Virus record (IMG/VR): IMGVR_UViG_2671180849_000019
Reading direction: 5' to 3' (one strand)
Length of the DNA stretch: 34,380 bases
DNA from: a virus
Taxonomy: Duplodnaviria; Heunggongvirae; Uroviricota; Caudoviricetes
Shown: in pieces, positions 1 to 32,947 of the stretch
How positions within the stretch are numbered: position 1 is the stretch's first letter
How the letters are laid out: the number at the start of each line of letters is the position of its first letter
Translations under genes and position numbers: made by a program
Notes under the pieces: generated by a model
The model's input: the letters and a program-made list of their open reading frames with translations, nothing else
The model's database searches: none
Told to the model about the DNA's origin: nothing

Positions 1-429
1 ATGTACGTATGGAGCGCTAAATCAAATGGCTTTTTCCCCATATCGGAGAAAGAAAAATTTGAGGCATCAGGTCTGTGGCCTGATGATGGTGTAATAGTCA
101 GTGAGGAAGAACATAAAAAGTTATTTATGGATATTCCACCAGGAAAACAGATTGGAACACTGAATGGAAAACCAGCACTGATAGATATTCCTCAGCCGAC
201 CAAAAAGGAATTAATAGCTATTGCTGAAGTTAAAAAATCCCAATTACGGGAAAAAGCTGACAGTGAAATATCCTGGCGTCAGGATGCTGTTGATGCTGAT
301 ATCGCAACTGATGAAGAAACTTCAACTCTCACCGAATGGAAGAAATACCGTGTGCTGCTGATGCGTGTTGATACTTCAACAGCACCCGATATTGAATGGC
401 CTACGCCTCCGGCAGTTCAGGCCAGATGA
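1..429 (+). CDS. tail fibre assembly protein (Tfa/U-like); may be 5'-truncated by the window edge
   Basis: C-terminus ...[23 protein letters not shown] resembles the conserved C-terminus of lambda Tfa / Mu U family chaperones. Convergent with, and overlapping by 29 bp, a second Tfa gene on the opposite strand. Confidence 0.75.
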
Positions 430-994
430 CATCCGGCGCGGTGCTGGTATCTGTTGCCGTCACCGCGTCAATGTAATCCAGCACGGTGTTAAGTCGGGTT
501 GTTTCTGCCTGAGTCAGTTTCCGTCCGGCCTGTAATTTCAGCTGAATCAGACTAATGGAAGCCATTACTGCATCAATCAGTGACTGGCGCTGTGCTTCTG
601 CTGCTTCTACTGCGGCGTTATGCTGTGCCTCAGTATCTGTCACCCATTTCTCACCATCCCATTTATCATATGGCGTTAACGGTGAAAGCGTGACATAACC
701 GTTTTTGATGGCACCGATATAATCCACTGTAACAGCTGCGCCATTTTCTGTTGAGTAAACAGTCTCATTGCGATGGTCTTCTTCATGGCTCCATCCCTTA
801 CCCGTAAATACTGCCACTTTCCCCGGAATGTTTTCGCCCGGGTCAATACCAGTGGAACAGGCGGGCATACTTACGCCAGTATTAATATATTCATCAGACC
901 AGCCCGTATACTCAGATGTTTCAGCATCATAATAAAAACAACGCATATCGCCCGGCACTGTAGCCAGCCCATTTTTATCAAAAACAGGTTTCAT
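401..994 (-). CDS. tail fibre assembly protein (second, inverted copy; partner of the silent fibre cassette)
   Basis: 197-aa ORF with Tfa-like C-terminus (...[20 protein letters not shown]). Its ATG overlaps the stop of the upstream fibre cassette (TAATG). Confidence 0.8.
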
Positions 995-1451
995 TATTTA
1001 GCCCTCACCAGAAAGTTAAATGCAATATTTCGCGGTCTGACAGCAACAAAATTCACACCATCACCCACAGAGTTACTGGTGAAATTAAATCGTGAAAATC
1101 CTGGCTGATTTCCGGCGATGCCATCATGAAAGTTAATTGCGTGTCCCGCACCTCCGCCTATATTCCCGGCAAACTGAGAAAAGTTTGTAGCTTCCTGCCA
1201 GCTTAATAATTCGCGACCACCGTCTGCACCTCGCCCGTCATCCCAGATACGAATGAAATCACCGCGGGCTTCAGGTAATACCAGCGAAGGAAATACTTTC
1301 GCCAGCACAGGATAATCAGTGGCAGAGAATTTCGCGCCGTTGAACTTCAAAAACACCATACTGGACCAGCTGTCGATTACAGTATTTGGCATTGCAGCGG
1401 ACGGCCAGAAGAACGGAACGCCAATAGCTGGAGCACCTTCTCCCAAACCAA
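994..1451 (-). CDS. tail fibre C-terminal cassette (Sv'-like), silent: starts at the invertase crossover site and has no start codon of its own in this orientation
   Basis: Reading frame open from crossover site 1438-1463 to the stop at 994-996. Residues GLGEGAPAIGVPFFWPSAAMPNT... are identical to the distal part of the H ORF at 8317-8700. Confidence 0.65.
1068..1451. repeat. 384-bp segment identical to 8317-8700; identity ends at the invertase crossover dinucleotide
   Basis: Base-by-base comparison of the two stretches in the window shows no mismatch or indel. The flank beyond 1451 (CGTTTAAGAAAA, invertase side) differs from the flank beyond 8700 (GGTATGTGAGAA, H side). Confidence 0.95.
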
Positions 1452-1463
1452 CGTTTAAGAAAA
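1438..1463. other. DNA invertase crossover site (hix/gix/cix-like), TTCTCCCAAACC-AA-CGTTTAAGAAAA
   Basis: 26-bp imperfect dyad with central AA, resembling Hin/Gin recombination sites. Lies 50 bp upstream of the invertase gene and exactly at the repeat boundary. Confidence 0.6.
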
Positions 1464-1512
1464 TGCAGAGGTACCAGCTAACTGGCATCATCTCCGGTTT
1501 TTATTCAGGGGG

Positions 1513-2085
1513 ATGATCATGCTTATTGGCTATGTACGCGTGTCAACAAATGACCAGAACACCGATTTGCAACGTAATGCACTGAACTGCGCGGGATGTG
1601 AGCGGATTTTTGAGGACAAAATCAGTGGCACTAAGTCCGACAGACCGGGGCTGAAAAAACTACTCAGGACACTATCGGCAGGAGACACGCTGGTTGTCTG
1701 GAAGCTGGACAGGTTGGGGCGCAGTATGCGGCATCTTGTTACGCTGATAGAAGAGTTGCGCCAGCGTGGTGTGAATTTCAGAAGCCTGACTGACAGTATT
1801 GATACCAGTACCCCAATGGGCCGTTTCTTTTTTCATGTCATGGGTGCCCTGGCTGAAATGGAACGCGAACTGATAGTTGAACGTACCAGGGCAGGGCTGG
1901 CTGCAGCTCGTGCCAAAGGCAGAGTAGGTGGACGCCGTCCTAAGTTGACCACCGAACAGTGGGCACAGATTGGGCGTTTACTCGAGGCCGGAGAATCAAT
2001 ACAGCGTATTGCACTGATTTTTGATGTAGGCGTTTCTACCATTTATAGAAAATTTCCGGCAAATAAGATCAATGAATCCCCCTGA
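1513..2085 (+). CDS. serine DNA invertase (Pin/Gin/Cin/Hin family)
   Basis: N-terminus LIGYVRVSTNDQNTDLQRNAL with the catalytic Ser in the VRVST context, plus VVWKLDRLGRS, SPMGRFFFHVMGALAEMERELIVERT and a C-terminal HTH; near-colinear with e14 Pin as recalled. Start may be the ATG at 1519. Confidence 0.9.
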   Translation: MIMLIGYVRVSTNDQNTDLQRNALNCAGCERIFEDKISGTKSDRPGLKKLLRTLSAGDTLVVWKLDRLGRSMRHLVTLIEELRQRGVNFRSLTDSIDTSTPMGRFFFHVMGALAEMERELIVERTRAGLAAARAKGRVGGRRPKLTTEQWAQIGRLLEAGESIQRIALIFDVGVSTIYRKFPANKINESP

Positions 2086-2133
2086 ATCAGCATTATGTTG
2101 ATTATCCCTGCAAGCAGACAAATACCGTTATTT

Positions 2134-2151
2134 TGTGTGAATAACGACACA
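2134..2151 (+). promoter_or_regulatory. P2-type late promoter activator dyad (TGT-N12-ACA) upstream of FI
   Basis: TGTgtgaataacgacACA lies about 85 bp upstream of the FI start. P2 late promoters carry this dyad centred near -55 (Ogr-dependent). Confidence 0.45.
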
Positions 2152-2227
2152 ACTGCGCTTAGCTGTTTGTCAGGCACAATCACTTCAACATAGGGCGAAG
2201 CCTAATCCAATCAGGAGGTTCGCCACT

Positions 2228-3400
2228 ATGGCTCAGGATTACCACCACGGGGTGCGCGTTGTTGAAGTCAACGAAGGCACCCGATCTATTACCACGGTGA
2301 GCACCGCCATCGTGGGTATGGTCTGCACGGGCGATGATGCCGATGCAAAAATGTTTCCTCTTAATAAACCCGTGCTGATCACTGATGTGCTGACTGCCAG
2401 CGGTAAAGCGGGTGAGTCAGGTACTCTGGCCCGTTCGCTGGATGCCATCGCTGACCAGGCAAAACCCGTGACCATTGTTGTGCGTGTGCCGCAGGGTGAA
2501 ACGGAAGACGAAACCACGACCAATATCATCGGCGCAGTGACTGCTGAAGGTAAAAAAACAGGTATGAAAGCCCTGTTATCTGCCCAGTCACAGCTCGGCG
2601 TTAAACCGCGCATTCTCGGCGTGCCAGGCCACGACACCAAGGCGGTAGCTACTGAGTTGCTGAGCGTGGCGCAACGCCTGCGTGGATTTGCTTACCTGTC
2701 AGCGTATGGCTGCAAGACAGTGCAGGAGGCGATCACTTACCGCGAAAACTTCAGCCAGCGCGAAGGGATGCTGATCTGGCCTGACTTTACTGGTTGGGAC
2801 ACGGTGCTGAATGCCGAAGCAACGGCATATGCCACCGCCCGTGCGCTTGGTCTGCGCGCCAAAATTGACGAGCAGACCGGATGGCACAAAAGCCTGTCCA
2901 ACGTGGGCGTGAACGGTGTCACCGGAATTTCTGCAGATGTGTTCTGGGATCTGCAGGACCCGGCAACCGATGCAGGTCTGCTGAACCAGAACGACGTCAC
3001 CACGCTTGTGCGTAAAGACGGTTTCCGCTTCTGGGGTTCCCGCTGCCTGAGTGATGACCCGCTCTTTGCCTTCGAAAACTACACCCGCACGGCGCAGGTG
3101 CTGATGGACACGATGGCAGAAGCACACATGTGGGCGGTGGATAAACCGCTTAACCCGTCGCTGGCCCGCGACATTATCGAAGGTATCCGCGCCAAAATGC
3201 GCAGCCTGGTCAGTCAGGGCTATCTCATTGGTGGTGATTGCTGGCTGGATGAGTCGGTGAACGACAAAGACACGCTGAAAGCCGGAAAACTCACCATCGA
3301 CTACGACTACACGCCAGTGCCGCCACTTGAAAACCTGATGCTGCGTCAGCGCATCACCGATCAGTACCTGGTGAATTTCGCCAGCCAGGTCAGCGCGTAA
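2228..3400 (+). CDS. FI: tail sheath protein (gpFI)
   Basis: 390-aa ORF; [19 protein letters not shown]...[12 protein letters not shown]... and C-terminal ...[22 protein letters not shown] match P2 FI as recalled. AGGAGG RBS upstream. Confidence 0.95.
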
Positions 3401-3409
3401 GGGGACAAC

Positions 3410-3925
3410 ATGGCATTACCACGCAAATTAAAACACCTGAACCTGTTTAACGACGGGAACAACTGGCAGGGGATCGTTGAGTCGCTGACGCTGCCGAAAT
3501 TTACCCGCAAATATGAGAAGTATCGCGGCGGCGGAATGCCGGGTGCGGTGGATGTGGATCTGGGGCTTGATGACAGTGCGCTGGACACAGAATTTTCCAT
3601 TGGTGGTACTGAATTGCTGCTGTTTAAACAGATGGGTAAAGCCACGGTGGATGGCATCCAGCTGCGCTTTACCGGCTCTATTCAGCGTGACGATACCGGG
3701 GAAGTGCAGGCCGTGGAGCTTGTCGTGCGTGGACGTCACAAAGAAGTGGATTCCGGCGAGTGGAAGACGGGCGAAAGCAACACCACCAAAGTGACCAGTA
3801 CCAACAGCTACGCGAAGCTGACCATCAATGGTGAGGTGCTCTATGAAGTGGACCTTATCAACATGGTGGAAATTGTGGACGGTGTGGACCTGATGGAAGC
3901 GCACCGCAACGCCCTCGGCCTCTGA
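3410..3925 (+). CDS. FII: tail tube protein (gpFII)
   Basis: 171-aa ORF immediately downstream of FI, P2 FII-like in size and position. Confidence 0.9.
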   Translation: MALPRKLKHLNLFNDGNNWQGIVESLTLPKFTRKYEKYRGGGMPGAVDVDLGLDDSALDTEFSIGGTELLLFKQMGKATVDGIQLRFTGSIQRDDTGEVQAVELVVRGRHKEVDSGEWKTGESNTTKVTSTNSYAKLTINGEVLYEVDLINMVEIVDGVDLMEAHRNALGL

Positions 3926-3979
3926 TATATCTGAACGGCGCGGGATACCGCGCCAGAACCCAATTGACAGGACAGCAAA

Positions 3980-4282
3980 ATGAGCGATAAGCAGACTGAA
4001 AAGACCATTCAACTGGATACCCCCATCAAGCGCGGTAAAACAGAAATCACCGAAATTGTGCTGCGTAAACCGCAGTCCGGTGCGCTGCGCGGTACACGCC
4101 TGCAGGCCATTATGGATATGGATGTAAACGCGATGATGACCGTGATCCCCCGCATCTCCAGTCCGGCACTGACTGCACAGGAAATTGCAGAGATGGACCC
4201 GGCAGATCTCACTGCCATGTCGGTTGAGGTTGTCACTTTTTTGTTGAAGAAGTCGGTGCTTGCCGGTTTACCGACAGCCTGA
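3980..4282 (+). CDS. E: tail assembly chaperone gpE (zero-frame product)
   Basis: 100-aa ORF between FII and T, containing the slippery heptamer TTTTTTG at 4237-4243 near its 3' end. Confidence 0.85.
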   Translation: MSDKQTEKTIQLDTPIKRGKTEITEIVLRKPQSGALRGTRLQAIMDMDVNAMMTVIPRISSPALTAQEIAEMDPADLTAMSVEVVTFLLKKSVLAGLPTA

Positions 4283-4416
4283 CGGTTGACGATCTGGTGG
4301 CAGATATCGCCACCATTTTTCACTGGCCGCCATCCGTTACTGACGTTATGCCGCTGACCGAAGTGCTGGAATGGCGGTATAAAGCGATTCAGAGAAGCGG
4401 GGCCAACGATGAGTGA
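3980..4416 (+). CDS. gpE+E' fusion predicted from programmed -1 ribosomal frameshift at TTTTTTG (4237-4243)
   Basis: The -1 frame is open for 58 codons from the slip site (FVEEVGACRFTDSLTVDDL...EWRYKAIQRSGANDE) and stops at TGA 4414-4416, overlapping the T start at 4409. Same layout as P2 E/E'. Confidence 0.6.
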
Positions 4417-7400
4417 TAACAACCTGCGTCTGCAGGTCATTCTTAATGCGGTTGACAAGCTCACCCGTCCATTTCGATCTGCGCAGGCCAGTTCAAGAGA
4501 ACTGGCTGCTGCTGTCAAAAAATCCCGCGATGCAATAAAGCAGCTTGATCAGGCCGGGAGCAGTCTGGACAGCTTCCGAAAGCTGCAGGCAGAAAATCAG
4601 AAATTAGGCGACAGGCTGAACTATGCCCGCCAGCGTGCAAATTTGCTCAGTCAGGAACTGGGAGCGATGGGGCCGCCTTCGCAACGTCAGGTTGTTGCTC
4701 TGGGCCGTCAACGGCTGGCTGTTCAGCGCCTGGAAGAACGCCAGAAAAAGCTGCAGCAGCAGACGGCGCTTGTGCGTGCTGAACTGTACCGGGCGGGAAT
4801 TTCTGCGAAAGACGATGCGGGAGCAACTGCCCGTTTAGCCCGTGAAACATCACGTTATAACCAGGAACTTTCGAAACAGGAGGCGCGGCTGAAGCGACTG
4901 GGGGAAGCTCAGCGCAGGATGAATGCAGCGCGTGCCAGTTATGCCCGTTCGCTGGAGGTGCGTGATCGTATTGCAGGTGCCGGAGCCACCACCACGGCTG
5001 CAGGGCTGGCAATGGGTGCGCCAGTGATGGCGGCAGTAAAAAGCTATACCAGCATGGAAGATGCCATGAAAGGTGTGGCAAAGCAGGTCAATGGTCTGCG
5101 TGACGATAATGGCAACCGCACTGCACGTTTTTATGAAATGCAGGATGCCATCAAGGCTGCCAGCGAACAGTTGCCGATGGAAAACGGTGCGGTGGACTTC
5201 GCTGCACTGGTTGAAGGTGGTGCGCGCATGAACGTCGCAAACCCTGACGACAGCTGGGAAGATCAGAAACGTGACCTGCTGGCCTTCGCCAGTACGGCAG
5301 CAAAGGCGGCAACAGCCTTTGAGCTGCCAGCGGATGAACTGTCAGAAAGTCTGGGGAAAATCGCCCAGCTCTACAAAATCCCCACCCGCAATATTGAACA
5401 GCTCGGTGATGCGCTGAACTATCTGGATGATAACGCCATGTCGAAAGGGGCAGACATCATTGATGTGATGCAACGTCTGGGCGGTGTGGCTGACCGTCTG
5501 GATTATCGTAAAGCGGCGGCGCTGGGTTCCACCTTCCTGACACTGGGCGCTGCGCCAGAGGTTGCAGCCAGTGCAGCAAACGCGATGGTGCGTGAATTGT
5601 CCATTGCCACCATGCAAAGCAAGAGTTTCTTTGAAGGGATGAATCTGCTGAAACTCAATCCTGAAGTGATTGAAAAGCAGATGACGAAGGATGCGATGGG
5701 AACCATCCAGCGCGTGCTGGAGAAGGTAAACGCGCTGCCGCAGGACAAGCGCCTGTCTGCCATGACTATGTTGTTTGGTAAAGAGTTTGGCGATGACGCG
5801 GCGAAACTGGCAAACAACCTGCCGGAACTGCAGCGTCAGTTAAAACTGACAGCGGGCAATGATGCGCTCGGCTCCATGCAGAAAGAATCCGACATTAACA
5901 AGGATTCACTTTCTGCGCAGTGATTGCTGGTCAAAACCGGAGCGCAGAACACCTTCAGCAGCCTGGGCGAAACGCTGCGCCAGCCGCTGATGGATATTCT
6001 GTACACGGTGAAAAGCGTCACGGGGGCGTTGCGTCGCTGGGTGGAAGCTAACCCGGAACTGACAGGCACACTGATGAAAGCATCGGCTGTTGTGGCTGCG
6101 GTTACCGTCGGCCTCGGCACCTTAGCGGTGGCGCTGGCTGCAGTGCTGGGGCCGCTGGCAGTGATCCGTCTGGGATTCTCTGTGTTGGGTATCAAAACGT
6201 TATCTTCCGTTACGGCAGCAGTAACTCGAACCAGCAGCGCGTTGTCCTGGCTGGCTGGCGCACCACTGGCACTGCTGCGACGCGGGCTTGCTTCATCGGG
6301 CAACGCCGCAGGTTTACTTACTGCGCCGTTGTCGTCTTTGCGCCGCACGGCATCACTGACGGGAAATGTCCTGAAAACTGTAGCAGGTGCGCCGGTTGCA
6401 CTTTTGCGGTCTGGATTATCCGGTTTACGTGCGGTTGCTGTGATGTTTATGAATCCACTGGCAGCACTACGCGGCGGGCTGGCTGCCGCAGGCACGGTGC
6501 TGCGAGTACTGGCATCTGGTCCACTGGCGATGTTGCGCGTTGCCCTGTATGCCGTATCTGGTCTGTTAGGTGCTCTGCTCAGTCCGATAGGTCTTGTGGT
6601 TACTGCACTGGCGGGTGTGGCACTGGTTGTCTGGAAATACTGGCAACCCATCACCGCATTTCTCGGTGGCGTGGTGGAAGGATTCAAAGCGGCGGCAGGT
6701 CCCATCAGTGCAGCGTTCGAACCGCTTAAGCCTGTGTTCCAGTGGATTGGTGACAAAGTGCAGGCGCTGTGGGGCTGGTTTACTGATCTGCTGACGCCCG
6801 TTAAGTCGACTTCTGCCGAACTGCAGAGCGCAGCGGCAATGGGGCGACGATTCGGGGAGGCACTGGCGGAAGGGCTGAATATGGTTATGCATCCGCTGGA
6901 CTCCCTGAAATCTGGCGTTTCCTGGTTGCTGGATAAACTCGGCATTGTCAGTAAAGAGGCTGCAAAGGCGAAACTGCCGGAAAGCGTGACGCGTCAGCAA
7001 CCTGCGACGGTGAATGCAGACGGTAAAGTGATGATGCCATCGGGTGGTTTTCCGTCATGGGGATATGGCTTTGCGGGGATGTATGACAGCGGCGGCTATA
7101 TCCCGCGCGGGCAGTTTGGCATCGTCGGTGAAAACGGGCCGGAAATTGTTAACGGCCCGGCAAATGTGACCAGCCGGAGAAATACAGCTGCACTGGCTGC
7201 CGTTGTTGCCGGAATGATGGGCGTTGCTGCCGCGCCTGCAGAGCTTCCACCGTTGCACCCTTTGGCACTTCCCGCGAAAGGCGGCGAAGCGATGGTGAGT
7301 CGTGCAGCCACTGTGCCGCCCGTTCAACGGATTGAGGCACCGATGCAGATCATCATTCAGACGCAGCCAGGACAAAGTGCGCAGGATATTGCGCGGGAGG

Positions 7401-7486
7401 TGGCCCGCCAGCTTGATGAACGTGAACGTAGGCTGAAGGCAAAAGCCAGGAGTAACTACAGCGATCAGGGGGGATACGACGCATGA
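4409..7486 (+). CDS. T: tail tape measure protein (gpT-like), interrupted by an in-frame TGA at 5921-5923 (possible pseudogene, readthrough or sequence error)
   Basis: ORFs 4409-5923 and 5924-7486 are in the same frame, separated only by TGA. Coiled-coil-rich N half and Ala/Leu/Gly-rich hydrophobic repeats in the C half are typical of tape measure proteins. Gene sits between E' and U. Confidence 0.8.
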
Positions 7487-7968
7487 TGATGGTGCTGGGA
7501 TTGTACGTGTTTATGCTGCGCACCGTGCCGTATCAGGAGCTGCAGTATCAACGCAGCTGGCGACATGCGGCAAACAGCCGGGTAAACCGACGTCCGTCCA
7601 CGCAGTTTCTGGGACCGGACAACGACATGCTGACGCTTTCCGGTGTTCTTATGCCGGAGATAACAGGTGGCAGGCTGTCGTTGCTGGCACTGGAGCAGAT
7701 GGCAGAACAGGGGAAAGCATGGCCCCTGATTGAAGGCAGCGGCACGATTTATGGCATGTATGTGATTGAGGGACTGAATCAGACTAAAACGGAGTTTTTC
7801 CGCGACGGTATGCCGCGCCGGATTGAGTTCACCCTGTCGCTCAAACGGGTGGATGAATCCCTGTCCGATATGTTCGGTGATCTCAGTGCGCAACTGAATA
7901 ATCTGCAGGAAACGGCAACGTCTGCCTTAAGCGATATCAGTAAAACGGTGGGAGGGCTGCTGTCGTGA
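7483..7968 (+). CDS. U: tail protein gpU
   Basis: 161-aa ORF overlapping the T stop (ATGA), in the P2 gpU position. Confidence 0.9.
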   Translation: MMMVLGLYVFMLRTVPYQELQYQRSWRHAANSRVNRRPSTQFLGPDNDMLTLSGVLMPEITGGRLSLLALEQMAEQGKAWPLIEGSGTIYGMYVIEGLNQTKTEFFRDGMPRRIEFTLSLKRVDESLSDMFGDLSAQLNNLQETATSALSDISKTVGGLLS

Positions 7969-8305
7969 ATTTCAGCTCTGAACTGCTTAACAAAAGCAAC
8001 AAAACTCCGGCATTCAGCATCAGTATTGAGGGTAGGGATATCACCACTGTGCTGGATAACCGCCTGATGAGTCTGACTCTGACGGACAATCGGGGCTTTG
8101 AAGCAGACCAGCTTGATCTGGAGCTGGACGATGCCGACGGGAAAATCGTGCTGCCGCGCCGTGGTGCGGTCATTACGCTGGCGCTGGGCTGGAAGGGGCA
8201 GCCGCTTTTCCCGAAAGGGGCATTCACGGTGGACGAGATTGAACACACTGGCGCACCGGACCGCCTGACTATCCGGGCGCGAAGTGCTGATTTTCGGGAA
8301 ACGCT
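7965..8305 (+). CDS. D: tail protein gpD (late control D family), 3'-truncated by the N-gap
   Basis: ORF starts with start/stop overlap to U and is open for 113 codons until the N run at 8306. Confidence 0.8.
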
Positions 8306-8316
8306 NNNNNNNNNNN
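8306..8316. other. assembly gap (11 N)
   Basis: Literal run of n characters in the sequence. Confidence 1.
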
Positions 8317-8700
8317 CAGAGTTACTGGTGAAATTAAATCGTGAAAATCCTGGCTGATTTCCGGCGATGCCATCATGAAAGTTAATTGCGTGTCCCGCAC
8401 CTCCGCCTATATTCCCGGCAAACTGAGAAAAGTTTGTAGCTTCCTGCCAGCTTAATAATTCGCGACCACCGTCTGCACCTCGCCCGTCATCCCAGATACG
8501 AATGAAATCACCGCGGGCTTCAGGTAATACCAGCGAAGGAAATACTTTCGCCAGCACAGGATAATCAGTGGCAGAGAATTTCGCGCCGTTGAACTTCAAA
8601 AACACCATACTGGACCAGCTGTCGATTACAGTATTTGGCATTGCAGCGGACGGCCAGAAGAACGGAACGCCAATAGCTGGAGCACCTTCTCCCAAACCAA
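8317..8700. repeat. second copy of the 384-bp fibre-cassette segment (identical to 1068-1451), here fused to the constant part of H
   Basis: Exact identity from 8317 up to the crossover dinucleotide at 8699-8700, then divergence. Confidence 0.95.
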
Positions 8701-9748
8701 GGTATGTGAGAAGACCAGCTACATCCTTTCCACTCAAATTGGTAAGCGTATTGTCCAGCGGTTGTTTACCTGCCAGCGCATTAAGCATTGTCGTGGCAAA
8801 GTTCGGATCATTCCCCAGTGCCGCCGCCAGTTCGTTCAGTGTATCCAGTGCAGCAGGTGCAGAACCCACCATTCCTGCAATCGCCGATTTCACAAAAGCC
8901 GTAGTGGCAATCTGTGTATTGTTGACCGACTGCGCCGCCGTGGGGGCTGTTGGCGTTCCGGTGAGTGCCGGACTCGACAACGGTGCTTTTAGTGCCAGCG
9001 CATTGTTAATGGTGGTACTGAAATTCGGATCATTGTTAATGGCTGCGGCTATTTCTTTCAGCGTGTCCAGCGTGGCTGGCGCACCATTAATAAGGGCCGT
9101 CAGTGCCGCCTGTACAAACGCAGTGGTCGCAACCTGCGTGGTATTATTCCCCGCCGCTGGCGTTGGCGCTTTGGGGGTTCCGGTAAATGTCGGGCTGGCT
9201 TTTGGCGCGTACTGTGAATGCGGGTCCGGTGCGGCAAGATGTTTTGCCATCTGATCATCCGCGTACACCTTCAGCTCCAGTGCCTTGTCATCCACATACT
9301 TGCGGGTTGCCAGCACTACAGCAGGGTCGATTTTCAGGGTGATATTGTCCGTGCTGCTGGTAATCAGCACCATGCGCACGGTCTGAGTGCGCCCGCTACC
9401 TTCAGCCAGTTGCGGCTTATAGCTTTCCGGGCAGTTGCCCACGGCAATCAATGCCCCGGACTCATCAAACAAGCCCACTTCACGTATCCACCAACCGCCC
9501 TCGTTTTCAGGGATCACCTGTTCGGCAATAATCTGGCTGCTGTTCTGCGGGTCGATATAAAGCATATTCAGCGCAGCCCGGCGTTTCTCATTTACCAGTG
9601 CCGTCTGCTTTGCGTCCTGCGTTGGCAATACTCCACCGCCATCGCCCACCGCCATATGGGTAATTTTTAGCGGCACACCGAGCGCGGCGGCGCTGGCAAG
9701 TTTCGCCGCGCCAATATCCGTCAGCAGGGTATAAAATTTTGTGCTCAT
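8317..9748 (-). CDS. H: tail fibre protein (gpH-like), 3' end truncated by the N-gap
   Basis: N-terminus MSTKFYTLLTDIGAAKLA...MAVGDGGG...AVGNCPESYKPQLAEGSGRTQTVRMV and the repeated SPxLTGTPTAPT / DTLNELAAALGNDPNFATTM motifs match P2 H as recalled. The ORF-track continuation below 8317 reads through the N run and antisense gpD and is not real. Confidence 0.9.
8687..8712. other. DNA invertase crossover site, TTCTCCCAAACC-AA-GGTATGTGAGAA (H-proximal copy)
   Basis: Same inner half-site and central AA as the site at 1438-1463, different outer half-site. Lies inside the H coding sequence at the constant/variable junction (...TYL|GLGEGAP...). Confidence 0.6.
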
Positions 9749-21007: not shown

Positions 21008-21748
21008 TTACTCAATAGGTTCAAACTCATCCTGAGGAATCAGCGTCGATTGACAGGCTTGGCTTAGTACTCCTGATAATTTACATAATAACCGATAGTT
21101 ATGAGGAGCATCATCGCTAATCTTTTCGACCGTTAAAGTGATTGATTTTGGATCATCCAATAACATCTTCTTGATATCATTACTTAAATACCTAGGGCAG
21201 TAACCAACGATTTCAGCTGGTTTATCTGCACGAACGACAACAGCATCCCCATCGTATTCATTTTGAAGATCCAAGCAAAGACGCAAAATTTGCCCCGGTT
21301 TCAATTCAGATACACGAGCATTAGCTAAGCTATTTAAGTAACCAAGTCCATGTAAGAAGAAAAAATGCTCAAAGTTACCATCAGAATCAACATCAATTTT
21401 TTTGAAAATCTGCAGCTGATCAGTGCTTCGTAAGCCTCCCGAGCGAGCAAGAATATCGATAGGATTTACCTTATCTTCTTCAAATCCAAGCCATTTAATG
21501 AAACTCGGATACTCTGGACGTCTCGGTGATAAAAGGCGATTTTTAAAAAGAGGAAACAATTCTTCCGAAACATAAGTTTCACGAACATCACTCATGCCGC
21601 TAAACTTTGTAAATTTAGTAGATTTGAGAGCACCTTTGGTATACCTGAAAACATACCCCGATTTGCGCTCTTGCAAGTTACCAACAACATGCCAGTCTCT
21701 GGTATCTGGTGCCTGCCATGCGACGTAAACGGAGTTTGTATTAGTCAT
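21008..21748 (-). CDS. hypothetical protein with C-terminal HIRAN-like domain (predicted DNA 3'-end binding); second gene of the kinase cassette
   Basis: 246-aa ORF whose ATG overlaps the kinase stop (ATGA). Segment LRLCLDLQNEYDGDAVVVRADKPAEIVGYCPRYL fits the HIRAN signature as recalled. Confidence 0.6.
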   Translation of the reverse strand: MTNTNSVYVAWQAPDTRDWHVVGNLQERKSGYVFRYTKGALKSTKFTKFSGMSDVRETYVSEELFPLFKNRLLSPRRPEYPSFIKWLGFEEDKVNPIDILARSGGLRSTDQLQIFKKIDVDSDGNFEHFFFLHGLGYLNSLANARVSELKPGQILRLCLDLQNEYDGDAVVVRADKPAEIVGYCPRYLSNDIKKMLLDDPKSITLTVEKISDDAPHNYRLLCKLSGVLSQACQSTLIPQDEFEPIE

Positions 21749-22659
21749 TCTAGTAACCTTCTGCGATTTTCCATTACCATTAACGTTGCAAATCTACGTG
21801 CACTGTCGGATATACACGATGAAGGCACTTGGTTAAACACATCTGTAATGGAATCTTCTGTTAAAACGCTCAACTTACCTAACCAATGGTCGCGAGCGGC
21901 AACTCTCCCTTCAACTGCATGTTGAAATGCTTCAACGGTCAGCAAGGGCTTTTTATCAGTTTTTGCTTTGAATAGCTCAGAGCGAGCTTTTCTTACAAAA
22001 CATGGGATTTGTCGATTTTTATCTTTAGTATTAAGCCGTTCGTTACGCTCATCATCTAACATCTCCCTTCCTAAACTAGCGGCATGATCGTATGTTGGAC
22101 ACAAAAACTGCTCACCAGTTTCATTGTTAAGCATGATCGCCCAATTTTCATGATGGCGATCTTGATTACTCACAAGTGCATCGAGCATCAAATATCCACA
22201 AAATACATCTGCTGCATTTAGCCCGGTTAGATCATATACACTCGGAGGAGGCTTGATAGATTCCCTATCTAAACAACCCAATACCCTTGTGACAGTGTGT
22301 TCTCTGACCCTTACCGGCTTTTCCCCGGCTTGTAAAGGCCCAGGATAATCGAATGTCGAACTGTGAAGCACTTCATTTCCCATTACCATCCGGAAACCAG
22401 ATGGAATGATATTCTGAGTCACCACACCGAATCGACCATTGTATCGCGCCAAATCATAGCTAGCATGTGGAATGTTAAGCAAATGACATAACTCAGCAGC
22501 ACACTTTTCAGACCAATGCTCGCCAGTACCTGGCCTAGAGTACTTAAACAACTGCAAATTTACAGTGTCATCGGAGAAATAGAACCAAAACTTCTCTTTG
22601 GTTCCTAACTGTTCAAGATCGTTAGCTACGGGGCTAAGCTCTACCAATTGGTATGGCAT
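21745..22659 (-). CDS. HipA-like Ser/Thr kinase (short, HipT-sized, lacking the HipA N-terminal subdomain)
   Basis: Catalytic-loop motif LVSNQDRHHENWAIM and downstream LCPTYDHAASLG match the HipA D-x-H-x-x-N and P-x-YD motifs; Gly/Lys-rich N-terminal segment QLGTKEKFWFYF. Confidence 0.7.
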   Translation of the reverse strand: MPYQLVELSPVANDLEQLGTKEKFWFYFSDDTVNLQLFKYSRPGTGEHWSEKCAAELCHLLNIPHASYDLARYNGRFGVVTQNIIPSGFRMVMGNEVLHSSTFDYPGPLQAGEKPVRVREHTVTRVLGCLDRESIKPPPSVYDLTGLNAADVFCGYLMLDALVSNQDRHHENWAIMLNNETGEQFLCPTYDHAASLGREMLDDERNERLNTKDKNRQIPCFVRKARSELFKAKTDKKPLLTVEAFQHAVEGRVAARDHWLGKLSVLTEDSITDVFNQVPSSCISDSARRFATLMVMENRRRLLE

Positions 22660-22954: not shown

Positions 22955-23254
22955 CTGCCAAGGGAAGCGTAAATCCGTATCTGAATGACTGCTGAAAAGC
23001 GAATCATACGGGTTTACAAAGATGAAAGTTCGCTGTGAGCGAGAAGCGAACCTTGCAACTTTGTTGGCACAGTTTTAACACCAATTTTTTGAGGATAGCT
23101 AGAAAACTTGTGGCATAAAGGATCAGTTTCCCGATCGAACTTTTTATCAAGAAGGGCTCATAGCAATCGCCAGAAGAAGTGATGTTAAAGTATTGAGCTC
23201 GGCGTTAAGATTAAATAAATTACAGACTAATCCAATGTTTTGTGGAAGGATAAG

Positions 23255-24298
23255 ATGGCAGTCAAGCGCGCATACTACGGTAACGATAGTGACCGAGACT
23301 ACTTAGAGCGGATATTTCAGTCAGCTAACATTAACTTTCTCATCGGATCAGGTGCATCCCTCCCAGCGATTAAAGTACTGGGGACAATCGAAACGGATCT
23401 TCAGCAGCTTATTAATGATGAACAGGAAGATGAATACTTAAGGATGGCAGCTGACTTTTTGTCAGATGTTTGGCTACCTCATGAATGCATGTTGAAGCGC
23501 GGCTACGGCACCCCCTTCGCACCTCAGGTGATCACCGATTTGGAATGTACCCGTGCAAATTATGATGCATTTATGTCTTCACTGGAAAAGATACTGACCC
23601 GCCGCCGAACTGGCCTACTTCCGAGGCGTATTAACGTTTTTACAACTAATTATGATTTATTCATCGAAGAAGCTGCCACACGTAATAACAATATTCTTTT
23701 TAATGATGGATTCAATAGAAGAGCAAGTATTTTGGGAGATGCGGAATTTGATGCGGGTAGCTTTAATCATTCTGTAAGTGCAACCGGAAATCTGTATAAT
23801 TATAAAGTTGAGCTTCCTACTGTTAACCTTATAAAACTTCATGGTTCGCTCTCTTGGCAGCATTCTAAAGGGAAAATCATTTATCGTATTGCAGATATTA
23901 AGCCGCTTGACTTTCCCACCCTAGCCGAAATGAAAGGATGGGTACTTGCTCATGCACTTATTCTTCCACGTAAGGAGAAGTTTAAAGAGACTCTACTACA
24001 GAACGTTTATTATGATTTACTGAGAACCTATTCCAACGAGCTTGATAAAGAAGCAACTTTACTAATTGTCTTTGGGTTCTCGTTTGCTGATGAGCACATT
24101 GAAACGATAACTAAAAAAGCCCTGCGCAACGCCACCCTGAAGCTACTGATCTTTGCTTTCGATGAGGCCAGTGTTAACGGCTTTATGGAGAAATTTCGGG
24201 ATTACTCAAACGTAGAGATTATTTATCGGCCGGGAAGAAATGTTGATTTTCCGGTAATGAATAACATTATCACGTGCTATCTGGGAGGCTCGAGATGA
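23255..24298 (+). CDS. SIR2-family NAD+-binding protein (defence-associated; SIR2 component of a SIR2-HerA pair)
   Basis: Motifs NFLIGSGASLP (Gly-rich NAD loop), VFTTNYDLFIE and LIKLHGSL (catalytic His). Start taken at ATG 23255 after GGAAGGA; the ORF track starts at TTG 23240. Confidence 0.85.
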   Translation: MAVKRAYYGNDSDRDYLERIFQSANINFLIGSGASLPAIKVLGTIETDLQQLINDEQEDEYLRMAADFLSDVWLPHECMLKRGYGTPFAPQVITDLECTRANYDAFMSSLEKILTRRRTGLLPRRINVFTTNYDLFIEEAATRNNNILFNDGFNRRASILGDAEFDAGSFNHSVSATGNLYNYKVELPTVNLIKLHGSLSWQHSKGKIIYRIADIKPLDFPTLAEMKGWVLAHALILPRKEKFKETLLQNVYYDLLRTYSNELDKEATLLIVFGFSFADEHIETITKKALRNATLKLLIFAFDEASVNGFMEKFRDYSNVEIIYRPGRNVDFPVMNNIITCYLGGSR

Positions 24299-26154
24299 GC
24301 AGGCATTTTACTGAAGAGGAAGCGGTGCTCCGTATAGGCGAAGTCTGTGAGGTTTCTGGACGCGCTGTGACAATTTTGGTCGATAAAAACAAAAATCTCA
24401 GTGACTTGTTTTATCAGGGAAAAGTTCTAAGAAATGTATCAGTGGGTAGCTTCATTGAGATCAAAAAAGGTTTCATGAGCCTGATCGGCAAGGTTGAAGC
24501 GGAACGAATCATTGAGGAAAAACATCTCGCTGGGAGCGGCAGTGATGCCTGGCGATATCGGCGATACCTGACCTCTACTCTTACGGGTTACATTGATCGT
24601 ACTGGTTGCTTCATTGGTGGTTCGCGTGAACTACCTCTCATCGGCAATGAAGTCTTCGTGGTAACTGAAGAGATGATACAAACGGTTCATCAGATAGCTA
24701 ATGCAGACGAAACTGTAATGAGGTTTACTCGTACAGATCTTGAAGATATTGAAATTGCACTACCAATCAATGGTCTTATTAATTCCCACATTGCCATTTT
24801 CGGTAATACAGGCAGCGGAAAGTCAAATACCCTAGCCGCGCTATACAAAGCAGGTATTGCCCAAGTTAAACATATTCTCGGCAACCACTTTAGTGAAAGA
24901 TGCAAATTTATTCTATTCGACTTTAATGGAGAATATACTGCCCCACGCTGTATTACTGACGAGAAGACGGTTTATAATCTCAACACGCACCATGCAAATG
25001 GTGACAAACTTCCTCTACCCAGAGAGGTTCTACTTGAGCATGATATGCTCTCAGTTCTAACCGATGCAACAGACAAAACACAGAAACCTTTCCTGAAGAG
25101 AGTTCTTGAGTTTCGCAAGAAAGTGATGACTGCTGATAATCCTCTTGAGTTTATGCGCAATATCCTGAAGAAAAAAGTCAGACAAAATCTCTTTAGTAGC
25201 GACAAACCCAAATGCGATACTATAAATCAGTTTCTTAGCCCAATTTTCAAAGATGACCCAGAACTTATATCTGATCTTGAGTATCATTCAACTGCATATA
25301 AATGGAAATTGAGGGGTGGTAGTATTTTCAATACAGAAGCTGATACTGAGCGCTCCTATCTATTCAGTCTTGCAAGCAATTTTTTATTTAAAACTGATAT
25401 GATTGAAGAACTGTTGGACTTTATGTACTTACAGTTAATACAGGAATATTTATCTAACAAGTCTAACCCTGAACATATTTCACCAGTTATAAATAGAATG
25501 AGTGCTAACCGTAAAGATATAGCCAAAATATTTGATACTTCCGGACAGTCTGACTTTTGGGGTGAACATAATTTCACGGTTGTGAATCTAAATATGGTTA
25601 ATATAACCATGAAAAAAACGCTTCCTCTTTTGATAGCCAAGTGGGCTTACAATATGAAGAAAATGTCTACAGAGAAATCTACACTGCACATCATTATAGA
25701 TGAAGCCCACAATATTTTGTCTAATACTTCTTTTCGGGAAACGGAAAGTTGGAGAGATTATCGTCTGGAAACTTTTGAGGAAATCATAAAGGAGGGGAGA
25801 AAATTTGGAGTTTTTATCACAATTTCCAGTCAACGCCCTAATGATATATCGTCGACAATCATATCCCAAGCACACAATTATTTTATTCATCGCCTTATTA
25901 ATCAGAATGATCTGTACGCAATTGAAAAATCAGTATCATATATAGATCGACTGACTGAAGAGTCGATTCCAACGCTATCTACAGGAACCTGTATTTTTAG
26001 TGGTATCGTCTGCCCCATGCCGCTCAAATTAAGGGTAGCTGAACTTCCAATTGAAGAAAAACCTAAGAGTAATACTATTTCCTTCAACGATTTAATACCT
26101 GAGAGGCTGGGAGAGGATGACCAGAGCGACTACGTAATAACCAGCCCTCACTAA
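24295..26154 (+). CDS. HerA/FtsK-like ATPase (HerA component of a SIR2-HerA defence pair)
   Basis: Walker A FGNTGSGKSNT and Walker B LHIIIDEAHNI; ATG overlaps the SIR2 stop (ATGA) with a GGGAGG RBS. Confidence 0.85.
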   Translation: MSRHFTEEEAVLRIGEVCEVSGRAVTILVDKNKNLSDLFYQGKVLRNVSVGSFIEIKKGFMSLIGKVEAERIIEEKHLAGSGSDAWRYRRYLTSTLTGYIDRTGCFIGGSRELPLIGNEVFVVTEEMIQTVHQIANADETVMRFTRTDLEDIEIALPINGLINSHIAIFGNTGSGKSNTLAALYKAGIAQVKHILGNHFSERCKFILFDFNGEYTAPRCITDEKTVYNLNTHHANGDKLPLPREVLLEHDMLSVLTDATDKTQKPFLKRVLEFRKKVMTADNPLEFMRNILKKKVRQNLFSSDKPKCDTINQFLSPIFKDDPELISDLEYHSTAYKWKLRGGSIFNTEADTERSYLFSLASNFLFKTDMIEELLDFMYLQLIQEYLSNKSNPEHISPVINRMSANRKDIAKIFDTSGQSDFWGEHNFTVVNLNMVNITMKKTLPLLIAKWAYNMKKMSTEKSTLHIIIDEAHNILSNTSFRETESWRDYRLETFEEIIKEGRKFGVFITISSQRPNDISSTIISQAHNYFIHRLINQNDLYAIEKSVSYIDRLTEESIPTLSTGTCIFSGIVCPMPLKLRVAELPIEEKPKSNTISFNDLIPERLGEDDQSDYVITSPH

Positions 26155-26298: not shown

Positions 26299-26532
26299 TT
26301 AATGCAGCCAGCTGTCGTCTTCCCACACTTTCTGCATAATTTTCATCACTTGTTTTCTTTCTTCATCCAGTTGCAGTCCGGTCAGTTCCACACCGTTAGA
26401 GCTACCTTTGCGGATACGAATTACCGTTTTGGGATACAGGGGGCGCAGATTGCGGTAAAGCTCGGATTCAAGGGCGTCCAGGGTAGACTGGCTAATCTTC
26501 TGCTCTTTATCGATCATTATTTCAATGCGCAT
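26299..26532 (-). CDS. DinI-like protein (Tum/Orf97-like SOS module)
   Basis: MRIEIMIDKEQKISQSTLDALESELYRNL...WEDDSWLH resembles E. coli DinI as recalled. Own RBS GAGGTG. The ORF track starts 24 codons upstream. Confidence 0.75.
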   Translation of the reverse strand: MRIEIMIDKEQKISQSTLDALESELYRNLRPLYPKTVIRIRKGSSNGVELTGLQLDEERKQVMKIMQKVWEDDSWLH

Positions 26533-26542
26533 AAAAGTCACC

Positions 26543-26731
26543 TCAACTGATGACATCCATTGAGCGGTTGTATTCGTGGGTTCTGATTTTTGCCATGAGT
26601 TCATCAGTCAATTCAGAAACCCACTGCAGAGCCAGCCCCTTCTCTTCATCACTACACTCACTAGCCGCTACAAGCTTAAGAAAAAAATCAATGCGCTGGA
26701 GCTTCAAAGACTCCAAAAAATAGTCCTGCAT
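26543..26731 (-). CDS. small hypothetical protein, first gene of the LexA-boxed operon
   Basis: 62-aa ORF with AGGAGG RBS, 43 bp downstream of a consensus LexA box; its stop overlaps the RBS of the DinI-like gene. Confidence 0.5.
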   Translation of the reverse strand: MQDYFLESLKLQRIDFFLKLVAASECSDEEKGLALQWVSELTDELMAKIRTHEYNRSMDVIS

Positions 26732-26773
26732 CTTTCCTCCTATGACACCAAAGCGATACTGTATACATAACCA

Positions 26774-26789
26774 CTGTTTATATTTACAG
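26774..26789 (-). promoter_or_regulatory. LexA operator (SOS box), CTGT-N8-ACAG
   Basis: CTGTttatatttACAG with an AT-rich spacer, upstream of the small ORF and DinI-like gene; a degenerate half-site (TATACAGTA) lies nearby. Confidence 0.6.
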
Positions 26790-26883
26790 TATATAATAAT
26801 CTTACTGATGTAAAACGTTTTTTTACGTTCATCAGCCAGAAATGCCTGGTATTATTAAGAGCACGAATTGTTAACCCGCGTAA

Positions 26884-29298
26884 TTAATACAGGTTCCGCC
26901 ACTTATCATCTTCCTGCAAACGCTGGTTCCGATAGAAGATACGCAGGCCTGCTCCTGACGGAATACTGCCGCCGCGAAGGAGTAAATCGACCTCTTTCTC
27001 GCTGCCATCAAATCCCCTGGACTTCAGTTCATACACGAGCTGCTGTCGCTGATGATCTGTAATTCGCTGTTTGTAGTCTTTACGCCGTTTCGGTTTCACC
27101 AGGCGTAACCTTGCTGCCAGTTCCCGGCGCTCTTTTTTGCTCATACTGTGCAGGTAATCGTGCAACTCCTTGTCATCCATACGGGTGATATCAGTTCTGG
27201 TATCTCCATCAGCTGATTTGTCTTTCCCTTGTTGGTACAAATTTTCAGCAAGGGGACAGTTATTGCCACGAGTCCAAGGGGCGCAAGCGCCCTGGTCGGC
27301 TGCCGCCTCCTGAACGTCAACGGCCTTACGAACCATTTTCCACTTCACTGCATGAGTGCAGATCTTGCCCTCTGCAATGGGTGACCAGATGCCATAAATA
27401 CGAATGCCGTGATCGCCATAGGCTGTCGGCTCTTCGTTGATTTCATAAGCGGTTCTGATCAAGTGATATTTGCGGGGAACCAACACGCCGCCCTGCTTCA
27501 TAATGTAGGTGGCAAAACAGCCAGCATCAGCAGCAGCCAGAATGGCATCAAGGCGCGGGTTATCCAGTACCGGAGCACCTGCTTTTTTGTCACCCTGTTG
27601 CCTTGCCGCCTGACCAGCCAGCAATCGCAGTTCACGGTAAGCCTGACGCCCCGGAATGCCAAAGAAGCGGAATTGCTGAACACGATGCAGAGACGCCCAG
27701 ACATTAACGTATTCAGCGTTATCACGCAGAGATTTACCCGTTTCCTTGCTGATCTCGCCAGCCAGACCACGCCCGTCAATGTTCTTACTGATATATTTCG
27801 CGATGTAGCTTGTCGGCGTTCCTTTGCGCGGGTTAATCAACTCAGACTTAAAGCGCGGCCCAGTGTTATTGCCCAGCTCCTCGCGGTCTTCACGGATGGC
27901 AAACTTACGCAGTAATGCAGTGATGGCGCGGCGGTCTTTTTTGCGCATAAAACACAACAGGTGCCAGTGAACTGTACCGTCATGATGCGGCTCAGCCACC
28001 CGCACGCCATACCAGCGCAATCCGGCTTTGTGCATCGCCTTACGAAATGCAGCAAACATGCCGACCAGATAGTCGCTGCTTTGTCTTACCGTCGAGTTTG
28101 TCCAGGTCGGGTTGGGTCTGCCGTTATTGAGCGTGGAATGGAAACGCGACGGACAGGTGATAGTGTAGAAAACGGCGCAGTCACTGCGCATTTCCGCGAT
28201 AAGCTCCAGACCTTTAACACAGGCCATCATCTCATTGCGGCGATGCGCCGGGTTGCTGCTGCTGGCGTTTACCACATCTTCCATATCCAGCGTGTCGCCG
28301 TCTTCGTTCACCAGTTCATGAGAACGGAAAAACTCCAGCGACTTACGGCGCTGCTCACGTTTATGCATCACGGCTTCATAGCTGACATAGGGGGATGCTT
28401 TTTTGCTGACCAGGCAGACAGCACGCAACTGCTCTTCCCGCCATTCACAACGCATCTTCCATAATTTCCGATACCACCAGTCGGCACACAACATACGCGC
28501 CAACGAACCCGGAATGAGTTCATAGGGCACGGGTTTACGGCGGTTTCTTTTCCGACGGAGTTGCTCAAACGCAGGTGGGATGACATCCAGACGCAGGGTT
28601 TCCGCTGCCACCTTTTCCCATGTCTTGCGGATTTCTTCTGGCTTAACGTCATCGGTGGCATACAAATCACCACAAGCTGCATCAAGGCACATACTCATAT
28701 GCGCAGCTACCAGGGTGGACAGGCGTTTCACCTGATCCTGACTCATTTCAGGCAGGATCAGCAGGCCGTCCAGCCCTTCATGGCTTGCCATAAAGCGAAA
28801 AGATGCAGATAGCTGACTGTCGCGTACATGCTCCAGTCGTTCCAGACATGGCTTAATCGTCTCACGTAAATAGCGGGAATAAGCCTTTGGCTTGCCCAGG
28901 CTGCTGAAGTATTCAATACGTTGCATCAGCGGCTTGCTGATATGGGAAGGCTGGGCGTTGACGTCCGCCAGAATGACCATGTCTGAATTAAAACGCTGCT
29001 GCTCATGCGCCAGCTTTGCCCGGCTAATGAGCTTATCCTGCTCCATTTCGCGCTGGACAGGATCACGTGATTCATTAAAGAAATAACGCTCCCAGACCTG
29101 ATCACTCAGTGCCTCGCGGCGCAACTGTTCCTGCTCGTTATCGGCAGCGTACAGAGTGATCAGGTTTGAAAGCGTAGAAACCGGCGCAACTTCCGCCGGG
29201 TCCAGATAAGGGTTAATGGCCTTTTTCGGGCTGTTCCATGAGAATGCTGCAGCAGCCTCGTTAAAGCCGCAGCAGTTGTTCATATCGGCATGACTCAT
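26884..29298 (-). CDS. A: replication initiation protein gpA (rolling-circle endonuclease)
   Basis: 804-aa ORF in the P2/186 A position, upstream of the tum-like module. Confidence 0.85.
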
Positions 29299-30152
29299 GC
29301 ACGTACTCCGTACACGGCAGAACTATCCACGCCACGCGAATAATCAAATCCCATCCAGCAGCGCGGCCCGGAAACAGCAATGATTTCTGTTGCTGATTTA
29401 CCCTCGCCAGCTGCCACACCGATGCTGCGTTTTACCTTGATATAGTGGTGAGTAAAATTGCGATACAGCGAACGGATCAGGGATGTGTCACTGTTAGAAA
29501 CAATGACTGGATGTCCTTCTGATGACCGATGTTCAAGAACGGATGCCAGGTGATACTGGTCATCTTCAGTGAAACCATCAGTGTGATAGCCGGAAAACGT
29601 ACCGTCATACGGCGGATCGCAATACACCACATCTCCCGCCTTCAACATCGCCAGCGTTTCATCAAAGCTGGCGCAGATAAACGTTGCTCGCTGGGCTTTT
29701 TCTGCAAATGTGCGAAGTTCTTTTTCAGGGAAATACGGATTTTTATAATTACCGTAGGGGATGTTGAAATGCCCGCTCTTGTTATAGCGACATAAACCAC
29801 GGTAACCGTGACGATTAAGATACAGGAAATATACCGCTTTCATGAAATCAGTAATTTCAGTTGAGCAGTTAAACTCCTGCCTTATGTTGTAATAAGCCAC
29901 CTCCCTGTTTGCGATCTCAAATAAAACTCTGGCGCGAGATATAAACGATTCACAATCAGCGGAAACCTTTTTATAGAGGTTGATTAAATCAGGATTAATA
30001 TCCGCAACCAGATAGCTGGGATAATCCGTTTCCATCATCACAGCACAGGAACCCGCGAAAGGTTCAACCAGTCGCGGGCCAGCAGGAAGGTATTTTTTCA
30101 GTTCTGGCATAATGGCGGTTTTATTTCCCGCCCATTTCAGGATGGTGCTCAT
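29295..30152 (-). CDS. DNA N6-adenine methyltransferase (Dam-like); start taken at [11 protein letters not shown]
   Basis: Motifs [16 protein letters not shown] (AdoMet binding) and [10 protein letters not shown] (catalytic DPPY). ATG overlaps the stop of the upstream TraR-like gene. Confidence 0.85.
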
Positions 30153-30615: not shown

Positions 30616-30676
30616 TTCTCCTGAATTTAGATAAAGGGATGCCCGGCGGGTTTACGCCATTAATTTCATTAGTTGG

Positions 30677-31018: not shown

Positions 31019-31040
31019 ACTTCATATCCCCCAAACGCAG

Positions 31041-31432: not shown

Positions 31433-31439
31433 AAGCACC

Positions 31440-31958: not shown

Positions 31959-32013
31959 CTCCGAACTTATCGCAAAATCGAACTCAGCGTCTTATTGCGA
32001 AAATAGACGTCTA

Positions 32014-32932: not shown

Positions 32933-32947
32933 TACCGGGAGGAAACT

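Follow-up and report, generated by a model that had tools for sequence, protein, structure and literature searches.

An In-Frame Opal Codon in the Tail Tape Measure Gene T of a P2/186-Type Escherichia coli Prophage

Organization of the Tail Gene Region

The window analysed here was the whole 34,380-nt stretch of IMG/VR record IMGVR_UViG_2671180849_000019, and the features around its tail genes are listed in Table 1. The tail genes followed the P2 order FI-FII-E-E'-T-U-D, and the genes H, I, J, W, V, S and R, the lysis genes, X, L, M, N and O, then P and Q, were located on the opposite strand. Beyond P and Q, there was a cargo region, followed by a 186-like early region with A, Dam, B, Fil, cII, Apl/Cox, cI and Int, in which a DinI/Tum-like gene was also present. 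The gene at 4409-7486 is T, the tail tape measure gene of a P2/186-type E. coli prophage. The prophage adjoined ybjL in the sister assemblies and in CFT073. Among complete genomes, the best match to the prophage as a whole reached only 98.0% identity. The ybjL-potF flank was 99.9% identical in the best complete genomes and thereby gave no match informative on the host lineage. The defence genes SIR2-HerA and PDC-M03 were observed as cargo in the prophage.

The slippery sequence TTTTTTG for the E+E' frameshift was intact at 4237-4243; the frameshift site of P2 E+E' has been described previously (PMC3091744). Furthermore, the ATG of gene U overlapped the stop codon of T (ATGA, 7483-7486), and the translation of U may be coupled to that of T and require ribosomes that have translated T to its end.

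Table 1. Features of the tail gene region in the window.
Feature	Position	Strand	Evidence
Gene FI (sheath)	2228..3400		P2 gene order
Gene FII (tube)	3410..3925		P2 gene order
Gene E (tail assembly chaperone, P2 gpE-type)	3980..4282	+	PF10109; 100% identical to CFT073 E
E' reading frame (GpE family)	4297..4416	+	tblastn with CFT073 GpE, residues 1-39, 97% identity; PF06528 in sister loci
Gene T (tail tape measure), opal allele, apparently a pseudogene in effect; 1025 codons, 1 in-frame stop	4409..7486	+	tblastn against CFT073; PF10145
N-terminal product expected of mutant T, 504 aa, about half of the normal protein	4409..5923	+	ORFs and deposited proteins
TGA (opal), codon 505, TGG (Trp) in relatives; G-to-A transition at 5923	5921..5923	+	Alignment
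C-terminal 520 codons of T; would be translated only via UGA readthrough or restart at the adjacent TTG	5924..7486	+	ORFs
Gene U (P2 gpU)	7483..7968	+	PF06995
Gene D, 5' third, cut by the scaffold gap and not by mutation	7965..8305	+	tblastn with CFT073 D, residues 1-119 only
Run of 11 N, scaffold join of two draft-assembly contigs	8306..8316	.	Sequence

In-Frame Stop Codon in Gene T

The ORFs of 504 aa and 520 aa in gene T were in the same frame and were parted by one codon alone, the TGA at 5921-5923, within the local codons TCT GCG CAG TGA TTG CTG GTC AAA ACC GGA. Together with this TGA, the two ORFs made up 3078 nt, that is, 1025 codons and the terminal stop. The first-pass annotation had described a single in-frame TGA that parted two same-frame ORFs of one tape measure of about 1024 aa. 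The TGA was read at this position, the ORF coordinates agreed and the two ORFs proved to be one gene, but the combined length was corrected to 1025 residues.

Residues 1-1025 of the CFT073 tape measure aligned to 4409-7483 by tblastn with 98.7% identity, no gaps and one stop. Because the alignment was gapless and full-length, the single-codon difference was anchored by homology and was not a chance juxtaposition of two ORFs. In addition, the Pfam domain PF10145 (PhageMin_Tail) was found at residues 246-457 of T with an E value of 5.5e-19. The C-terminal half, which is missing from the 504-residue fragment, included a hydrophobic repeat region in the translation. The position between E/E' and U and the full-length homology were those of a P2-type (Peduoviridae) gene T, and the uninterrupted frame of this family was broken by the TGA at codon 505. 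Judged from its sequence, the T of the window is a disrupted allele of the gene T family and not a functional member as written.

Codon 505 in Related Tape Measure Genes

The megablast search of 5400-6500 against phage records gave 33 near-full-length matches. A single tape measure gene of 3078 nt (1025 aa) was annotated in phage 500465-1, Klebsiella phage 4LV2017, CFT073 and E2348/69. Codon 505 was TGG (Trp505) in all five relatives that were read, namely phage 500465-1, 4LV2017, KP12, E2348/69 and CFT073. In the alignments of 500465-1, 4LV2017 and KP12, the two E. coli-type sequences had no difference from the window within 50 nt of the codon besides TGG/TGA. The exact 35-mer with TGG was present in 69 IMG/VR and 43 metagenome contigs (112 in all), while the version with TGA was present in one contig of the same collections and the TAG and TAA versions in none of them. 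The TGA 35-mer was also not found in the contig scan of species-representative genomes. Moreover, the 61 nt centred on codon 505 matched 758 of 5426 complete E. coli genomes, none of which was identical to the window, and the best 451-nt matches were one base off the window.

At the protein level, the Trp was kept in the tape measures of Fels-2, SEN4, Acinetobacter phage Alexa and Achromobacter phage Mano, with identities as low as about 35%. Tape measures still more distant had another residue there, and all the homologues aligned were continuous through codon 505. The sense codon in close relatives, within collinear sequence, was that expected of a nonsense (pseudogene) allele. The change from TGG to TGA (Trp to stop) in a P2-like tape measure, proposed in the first-pass annotation together with an alignment of tape measures for conservation of the Trp, was supported by the alignments.

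The tape measure might also be naturally made in two parts, with proteins of 504 and 520 aa cooperating; a TTG directly follows the stop, and gene callers annotate two proteins. However, no relative was split at codon 505. The sole record with two CDSs was that of KP12, in which a frameshift lying about 440 nt downstream of codon 505 caused the split. The natural split at codon 505 that would have spoken against a nonsense change was absent from the homologues aligned. Furthermore, reading of the sequence revealed no usably spaced Shine-Dalgarno motif for the TTG at 5924 or for the ATG at 5990, and the split was restricted to one clone. The two-part reading was therefore given practically no weight, the least of all the alternatives considered.

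Occurrence of the TGA in Independent Assemblies

The same TGA was read in eight fetched loci (L005-L010, L013 and L014). These comprised the IMG/VR contig UViG_2690315992 (L005), the NCBI drafts GCA_001285585.2, GCA_001284985.1, GCA_001284025.1 and GCA_001284165.2 (L006-L009), the Logan assemblies of the two SRA runs ERR4783774 (L010) and SRR18174172 (L014), and the gut-type ENA metagenome ERZ28646433 (L013). The number includes contig CYDZ01000025.1 of GCA_001284165.2, which was 100% identical to the window with an offset of 45 bases and is evidently the contig from which the window was taken. Over 5-8 kb, the eight loci showed 0-2 mismatches to the window, and they therefore represent one clone sampled many times. 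In addition, the exact 504-aa product was found on at least 18 contigs and was deposited four times at NCBI, in each case from E. coli (CTS44822.1, CTU13162.1, CTV63749.1 and CTV72928.1). A nonsense allele of nfsA was also observed in two sister isolates.

A sequencing or assembly error, with TGG in the true genome, had been listed as an alternative in the first-pass annotation. The window is a short-read draft scaffold in which at least one join (the 11 N at 8306-8316) is unreliable, which leaves some room for such an error. However, the TGA was also present in three other NCBI assemblies, two Logan assemblies, the ENA metagenome and the IMG/VR contig. Moreover, codon 505 does not lie in a homopolymer, and a substitution error would not turn up again as the same base. 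The error was thus refuted by the identical TGA in eight loci of different projects, and its residual probability is very small. On the basis of the concordant independent assemblies, the TGA is real and inherited.

Integrity of the Other Prophage Genes

The integrity of the prophage genes was tested by tblastn with all late proteins of CFT073 and all early proteins of phage vB_EcoM-813R9. All the tested phage genes were full length without any stop, save T, which carried the stop, and D, which was cut at the 11-N join. Within the sequenced part, the TGA is the sole inactivating lesion, which indicates that it arose recently.

The apparent convergence of U and the 5' part of D on the tail-fibre gene H suggested a large inversion splitting D and H. 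This arrangement was ruled out, as the break coincided with the 11 N. The 603-aa ORF at 7937-9748, which seemed to be a fusion of H to antisense D, was a product of the same join, and so was the truncation of D at residue 119. The inner boundary of a 384-bp repeat was exactly where the contig to the right of the 11 N ended. The near-identical sister locus L007, which has no N, showed the normal collinear order V-W-J-I-H-...-invertase-FI...T-U-D(366 aa)-ogr-ybjL, and D of 366 aa followed by ogr and ybjL was the arrangement in the sister assemblies. The tail-fibre cassette is invertible, with its crossover point at the repeat boundary, and the invertase still flipped the fibre segment between sister isolates.

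Evaluation of Programmed Recoding

The gene might be functional as written if the UGA were decoded as selenocysteine or by regulated readthrough. UGA is the stop of known bacterial and phage readthrough, and readthrough inserts Trp, which is the ancestral residue here (PMC10570021). However, every relative examined lacked the stop yet had the identical downstream sequence. No signal has evolved around the stop, because the TGG relatives share the same downstream sequence. The fold of the RNA at 5915-5990 was no more stable than that of shuffled sequences (z = 0.36), no Rfam family reached the threshold anywhere in the window, and a scan revealed no tRNA gene in the window, so the prophage has no suppressor tRNA gene. 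Furthermore, a U follows the stop codon, which also argues against recoding.

Neither a conserved stop nor a downstream RNA element, as in programmed readthrough or selenocysteine insertion, was found. The only stops at codon 505 among the homologues were that of the clone and one TAG allele of independent origin. The stop-codon readthrough that the first-pass annotation had offered as another alternative was thus unsupported, the stop being unconserved and without a fold, an Rfam match or a tRNA gene, and programmed recoding is regarded as highly improbable.

Recurrence of Stops at Codons 504 and 505

Another explanation is that the site is a mutational hotspot or that inactivation was selected, with the loss of tails and the retention of the defence cargo benefiting the host. 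The assembly of SRR3240968 (L011) carried TAG at codon 505 in another prophage background, with 44 mismatches in T, and this TAG is an independent event. A TAG was also found at the neighbouring Q504 in two loci (L026 and L027). The carriage of SIR2-HerA and PDC-M03 by the prophage would be in line with selection.

As a control, 10 other codons that a single transition would turn into a stop were chosen, and N-terminal fragments ending before each of them were looked up. Truncated products were found for seven of these codons, although many entries of this kind are contig-end partials. All four of the control codons inspected at the DNA level were real internal stops, namely W283 to TGA (L031), Q355 to TAA (L037), Q403 to TAA (L039 and L040) and the Q504 to TAG mentioned above. 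In addition, frameshifts were found in 4 of 63 full-length T genes of other, unrelated contigs. Stops thus occur across T at the present sampling depth, and therefore recurrence at one codon is not evidence of selection. Moreover, the site of codon 505 lies outside a Dcm (CCWGG) context. With regard to selection, lysis on induction is not stopped by a tail defect, so there is no obvious benefit to the host.

Codon 505 is not a hotspot, and the recurrence there is the expectation from deep sampling. An explanation by hotspot or selected inactivation was considered very unlikely, if somewhat less so than error or recoding. The control look-ups also indicated that, with sampling at its present depth, a common prophage gene will show a stop at nearly every mutable codon in one assembly or another.

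Proposed Consequence for Tail Assembly

The explanation favoured with high confidence is that a recent, real G-to-A change (TGG to TGA, Trp505 to opal) in gene T of this P2/186-type prophage has been fixed in one repeatedly sampled clone, and that tails are expected to be lost. The translation of T would end after 504 of 1025 residues, and the C-terminal half would not be made. Long-tailed phages need the tape measure for tail assembly; it belongs to the hub complex, from which the tube polymerises around and along it (PMC4493119; PMC3004832). In the absence of a full-length tape measure, the assembly of tube and sheath would be neither started nor measured. From this role of the tape measure, an induced lysogen would be expected to lyse with DNA-filled heads without tails and with few or no infectious particles. 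Furthermore, the expression of U and D may be lowered by the 1.56 kb of T mRNA that is not translated, through Rho polarity or lost coupling.

This block is probably incomplete. Of the stop codons in E. coli, UGA is the leakiest; it is misread by tRNA-Trp, and the rare product would be the authentic wild-type protein. The same mutation might thus act as a leaky opal allele, in which basal readthrough gives a low infectious yield and the prophage is crippled but not dead. This reading modifies the favoured explanation and does not exclude it. Only a few copies of T would be needed per tail, as for the gp29 tape measure, of which there are three copies per T4 tail (PMC3004832). In E. coli K-12, the readthrough of UGA by Trp-tRNA-Trp in competition with RF2 amounted to about 2% at 37 °C and to 4% at 25 °C (PMC10570021). 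In addition, all the other genes were intact and the fibre segment was still being flipped, which would be consistent with a prophage retaining some yield. However, polarity on U and D could limit the yield further. RF2 acts comparatively efficiently on UGA followed by U, and the RF2 of natural isolates is more active than that of K-12. The readthrough should accordingly be reduced and may be well below 2%. A leaky allele was therefore considered possible but doubtful.

A further proposal is that the opal stop acts as a natural attenuator, in that basal tRNA-Trp readthrough would restore authentic tape measure at a few percent and keep the phage at a low and condition-dependent yield while the host keeps SIR2-HerA and PDC-M03, and the recurrence at codons 504 and 505 would reflect selection for that state. 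If this were true, more readthrough would be expected at low temperature or with abundant tRNA-Trp. Such a role is very improbable, about as much so as selected inactivation.

Under the favoured explanation, a nonsense mutation with tails expected to be lost, the deposited "proteins" of 504 and 520 aa are the two pieces of a single broken tape measure gene, which should be considered in annotation. In calls of prophage viability, this prophage should be scored as probably tail-defective despite its complete look.

Comparison with Known Tape Measure Genes and Defective Prophages

The T of the window was similar to the tape measure genes of phage 500465-1 (YP_009949239.1, Peduoviridae, Wadgaonvirus) and of CFT073 (WP_001282781.1), with 3078 nt, a position between E/E' and U and 98.7-99.1% identity. 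It was different from both in codon 505, which was TGG (Trp) in those genes and TGA in the window. Like the FETUD tail operon of bacteriophage P2, the region showed the order FI-FII-E-E'-T-U-D, the TTTTTTG in E and a length-determining protein of a contractile tail. P2 gpT itself, which is shorter (815 aa), was too diverged to be among the tblastn matches listed. The classical conditional-lethal T mutants of P2 are laboratory amber alleles, whereas that of the window is a natural opal allele in a lysogen.

Similar to cryptic or defective prophages, the window carried an inactivating point mutation in an essential virion gene, which has been inherited vertically by the host clone. It was different from classical cryptic prophages, which have many deletions, in that the decay was at its very first step and the other tested genes were intact. 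The locus is thus a clean natural example of first-step prophage decay, with a single lesion and the rest intact.

With regard to the stop itself, the basal UGA readthrough of E. coli and the A1 protein of Qbeta involve the same stop and the same near-cognate tRNA, with Trp inserted. In Qbeta, the A1 protein is made when the leaky UGA is read by tRNA-Trp; this stop is conserved, and the phage requires the extended protein. In contrast, the stop of the window is a clone-specific accident without conservation. The disrupted allele belongs to a well-known gene family, and the kind of prophage and the process are likewise familiar, this being ordinary prophage decay.

Stop codons at codons 504 and 505 of gene T

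Stop codons at this point of the tape-measure gene were not restricted to the TGA of the window. The locus L011 (SRR3240968), which belongs to a different prophage background, carried TAG at codon 505 (4389-4391) as an independent event, and two loci from other prophage backgrounds, L026 (ERR4220943) and L027 (ERR13621220), carried TAG at Q504. Control codons elsewhere in gene T also showed stops, and the recurrence at 504/505 was therefore judged to be chance. In addition, the Logan contigs L012 (SRR30543823) and L015 (SRR35898252) both terminated at codon 505, one past the 'TG' of the codon and the other immediately ahead of it. These ends could be due to a mixture of alleles at this position within the samples, or they could be a coincidence.

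Contig joins and possible rearrangements

The 5' third of gene D meets the tail-fibre gene H head-on across a run of 11 N. This join produced a chimeric ORF of 603 aa (7937-9748, minus strand) and gave the window the appearance of a large inversion. In the near-identical sister assembly L007 (GCA_001284985.1), gene D was intact and the gene order was normal, so the join at 8306-8316 was probably a mis-scaffold.

For the sister draft L006 (GCA_001285585.2), the locus lay on a 641-kb scaffold and included 14 N. Within 1-7100, a chromosome-like region directly preceded the silent fibre segment and the invertase, standing where the left half of the prophage was expected. Based on Pfam domains and the K-12 gene order, we take this region to be mlrA-yehUTSR-yehQ. 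The junction reflects either a rearrangement of the chromosome between copies of the prophage or a further scaffolding error. Furthermore, the V-W-J-I-H block was inverted (3632-9400 of the locus L004) in the related prophage of E. coli E2348/69, a finished genome, in which gene S was annotated as truncated at the inversion junction beside the invertase region. In this complete genome, the aberrant inversion appears to be genuine.

A stop in nfsA and a possible lesion of gene H in sister isolates

The host gene nfsA, about 3.6 kb past the prophage end, had a stop at codon 121 (TCA to TAA) in L007 (18252-18974) and in the Logan assembly L010 (11216-11938), two isolates of one clone, and it was intact in the sisters L006 and L008. 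Loss of nfsA is a usual first step toward nitrofurantoin resistance. Moreover, L007 had a 1-base deletion relative to the window at about 4706 in gene H, splitting it into 158 and 341 aa, which was either a second lesion of that isolate or an assembly error.

Defence cargo, early region and invertible tail-fibre segment

Features of the window
Feature	Position	Strand	Remark
Tail-fibre-assembly gene	1-429	+	
Tail-fibre-assembly gene	401-994	-	
Perfect repeat, 384 bp	1068-1451 and 8317-8700		tail-fibre variable region
Hin/Gin/Cin-like sites, 26 bp	1438-1463 and 8687-8712		TTCTCCCAAACC AA ...
Serine invertase gene	1513-2085		adjoins Hin/Gin/Cin-like site
11 N, contig join	8306-8316		
PDC-M03 candidate pair	21008-22659	-	HipA-like protein and HIRAN-domain protein
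SIR2-HerA pair	23240-26154	+	PADLOC: SIR2 E = 6e-211, HerA E = 7e-267
DinI-family gene	26299-26604		early region
Dam methylase	29295-30212		early region
CI-type repressor	32276-32932		56% identity to closest phage's repressor

The defence cargo is flanked by the portal gene Q on one side and by the early region on the other. The early region (26299-34380) is 186-like, not P2-like; cII, Fil and Apl/Cox were also present, and the CI-type repressor shared only 56% identity with its counterpart in the closest phage. The DinI-family gene suggests SOS inducibility, by comparison with phage 186.

Both copies of the perfect repeat stopped precisely past the central AA of the Hin/Gin/Cin-like site (TTCTCCCAAACC AA ...). 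The two tail-fibre-assembly genes lie on a segment that was reversed in L007 compared with the window, and because of this opposite orientation the inversion switch seems to be active. The arrangement of repeat, site and invertase resembles the layout of the phage P1 C-segment.
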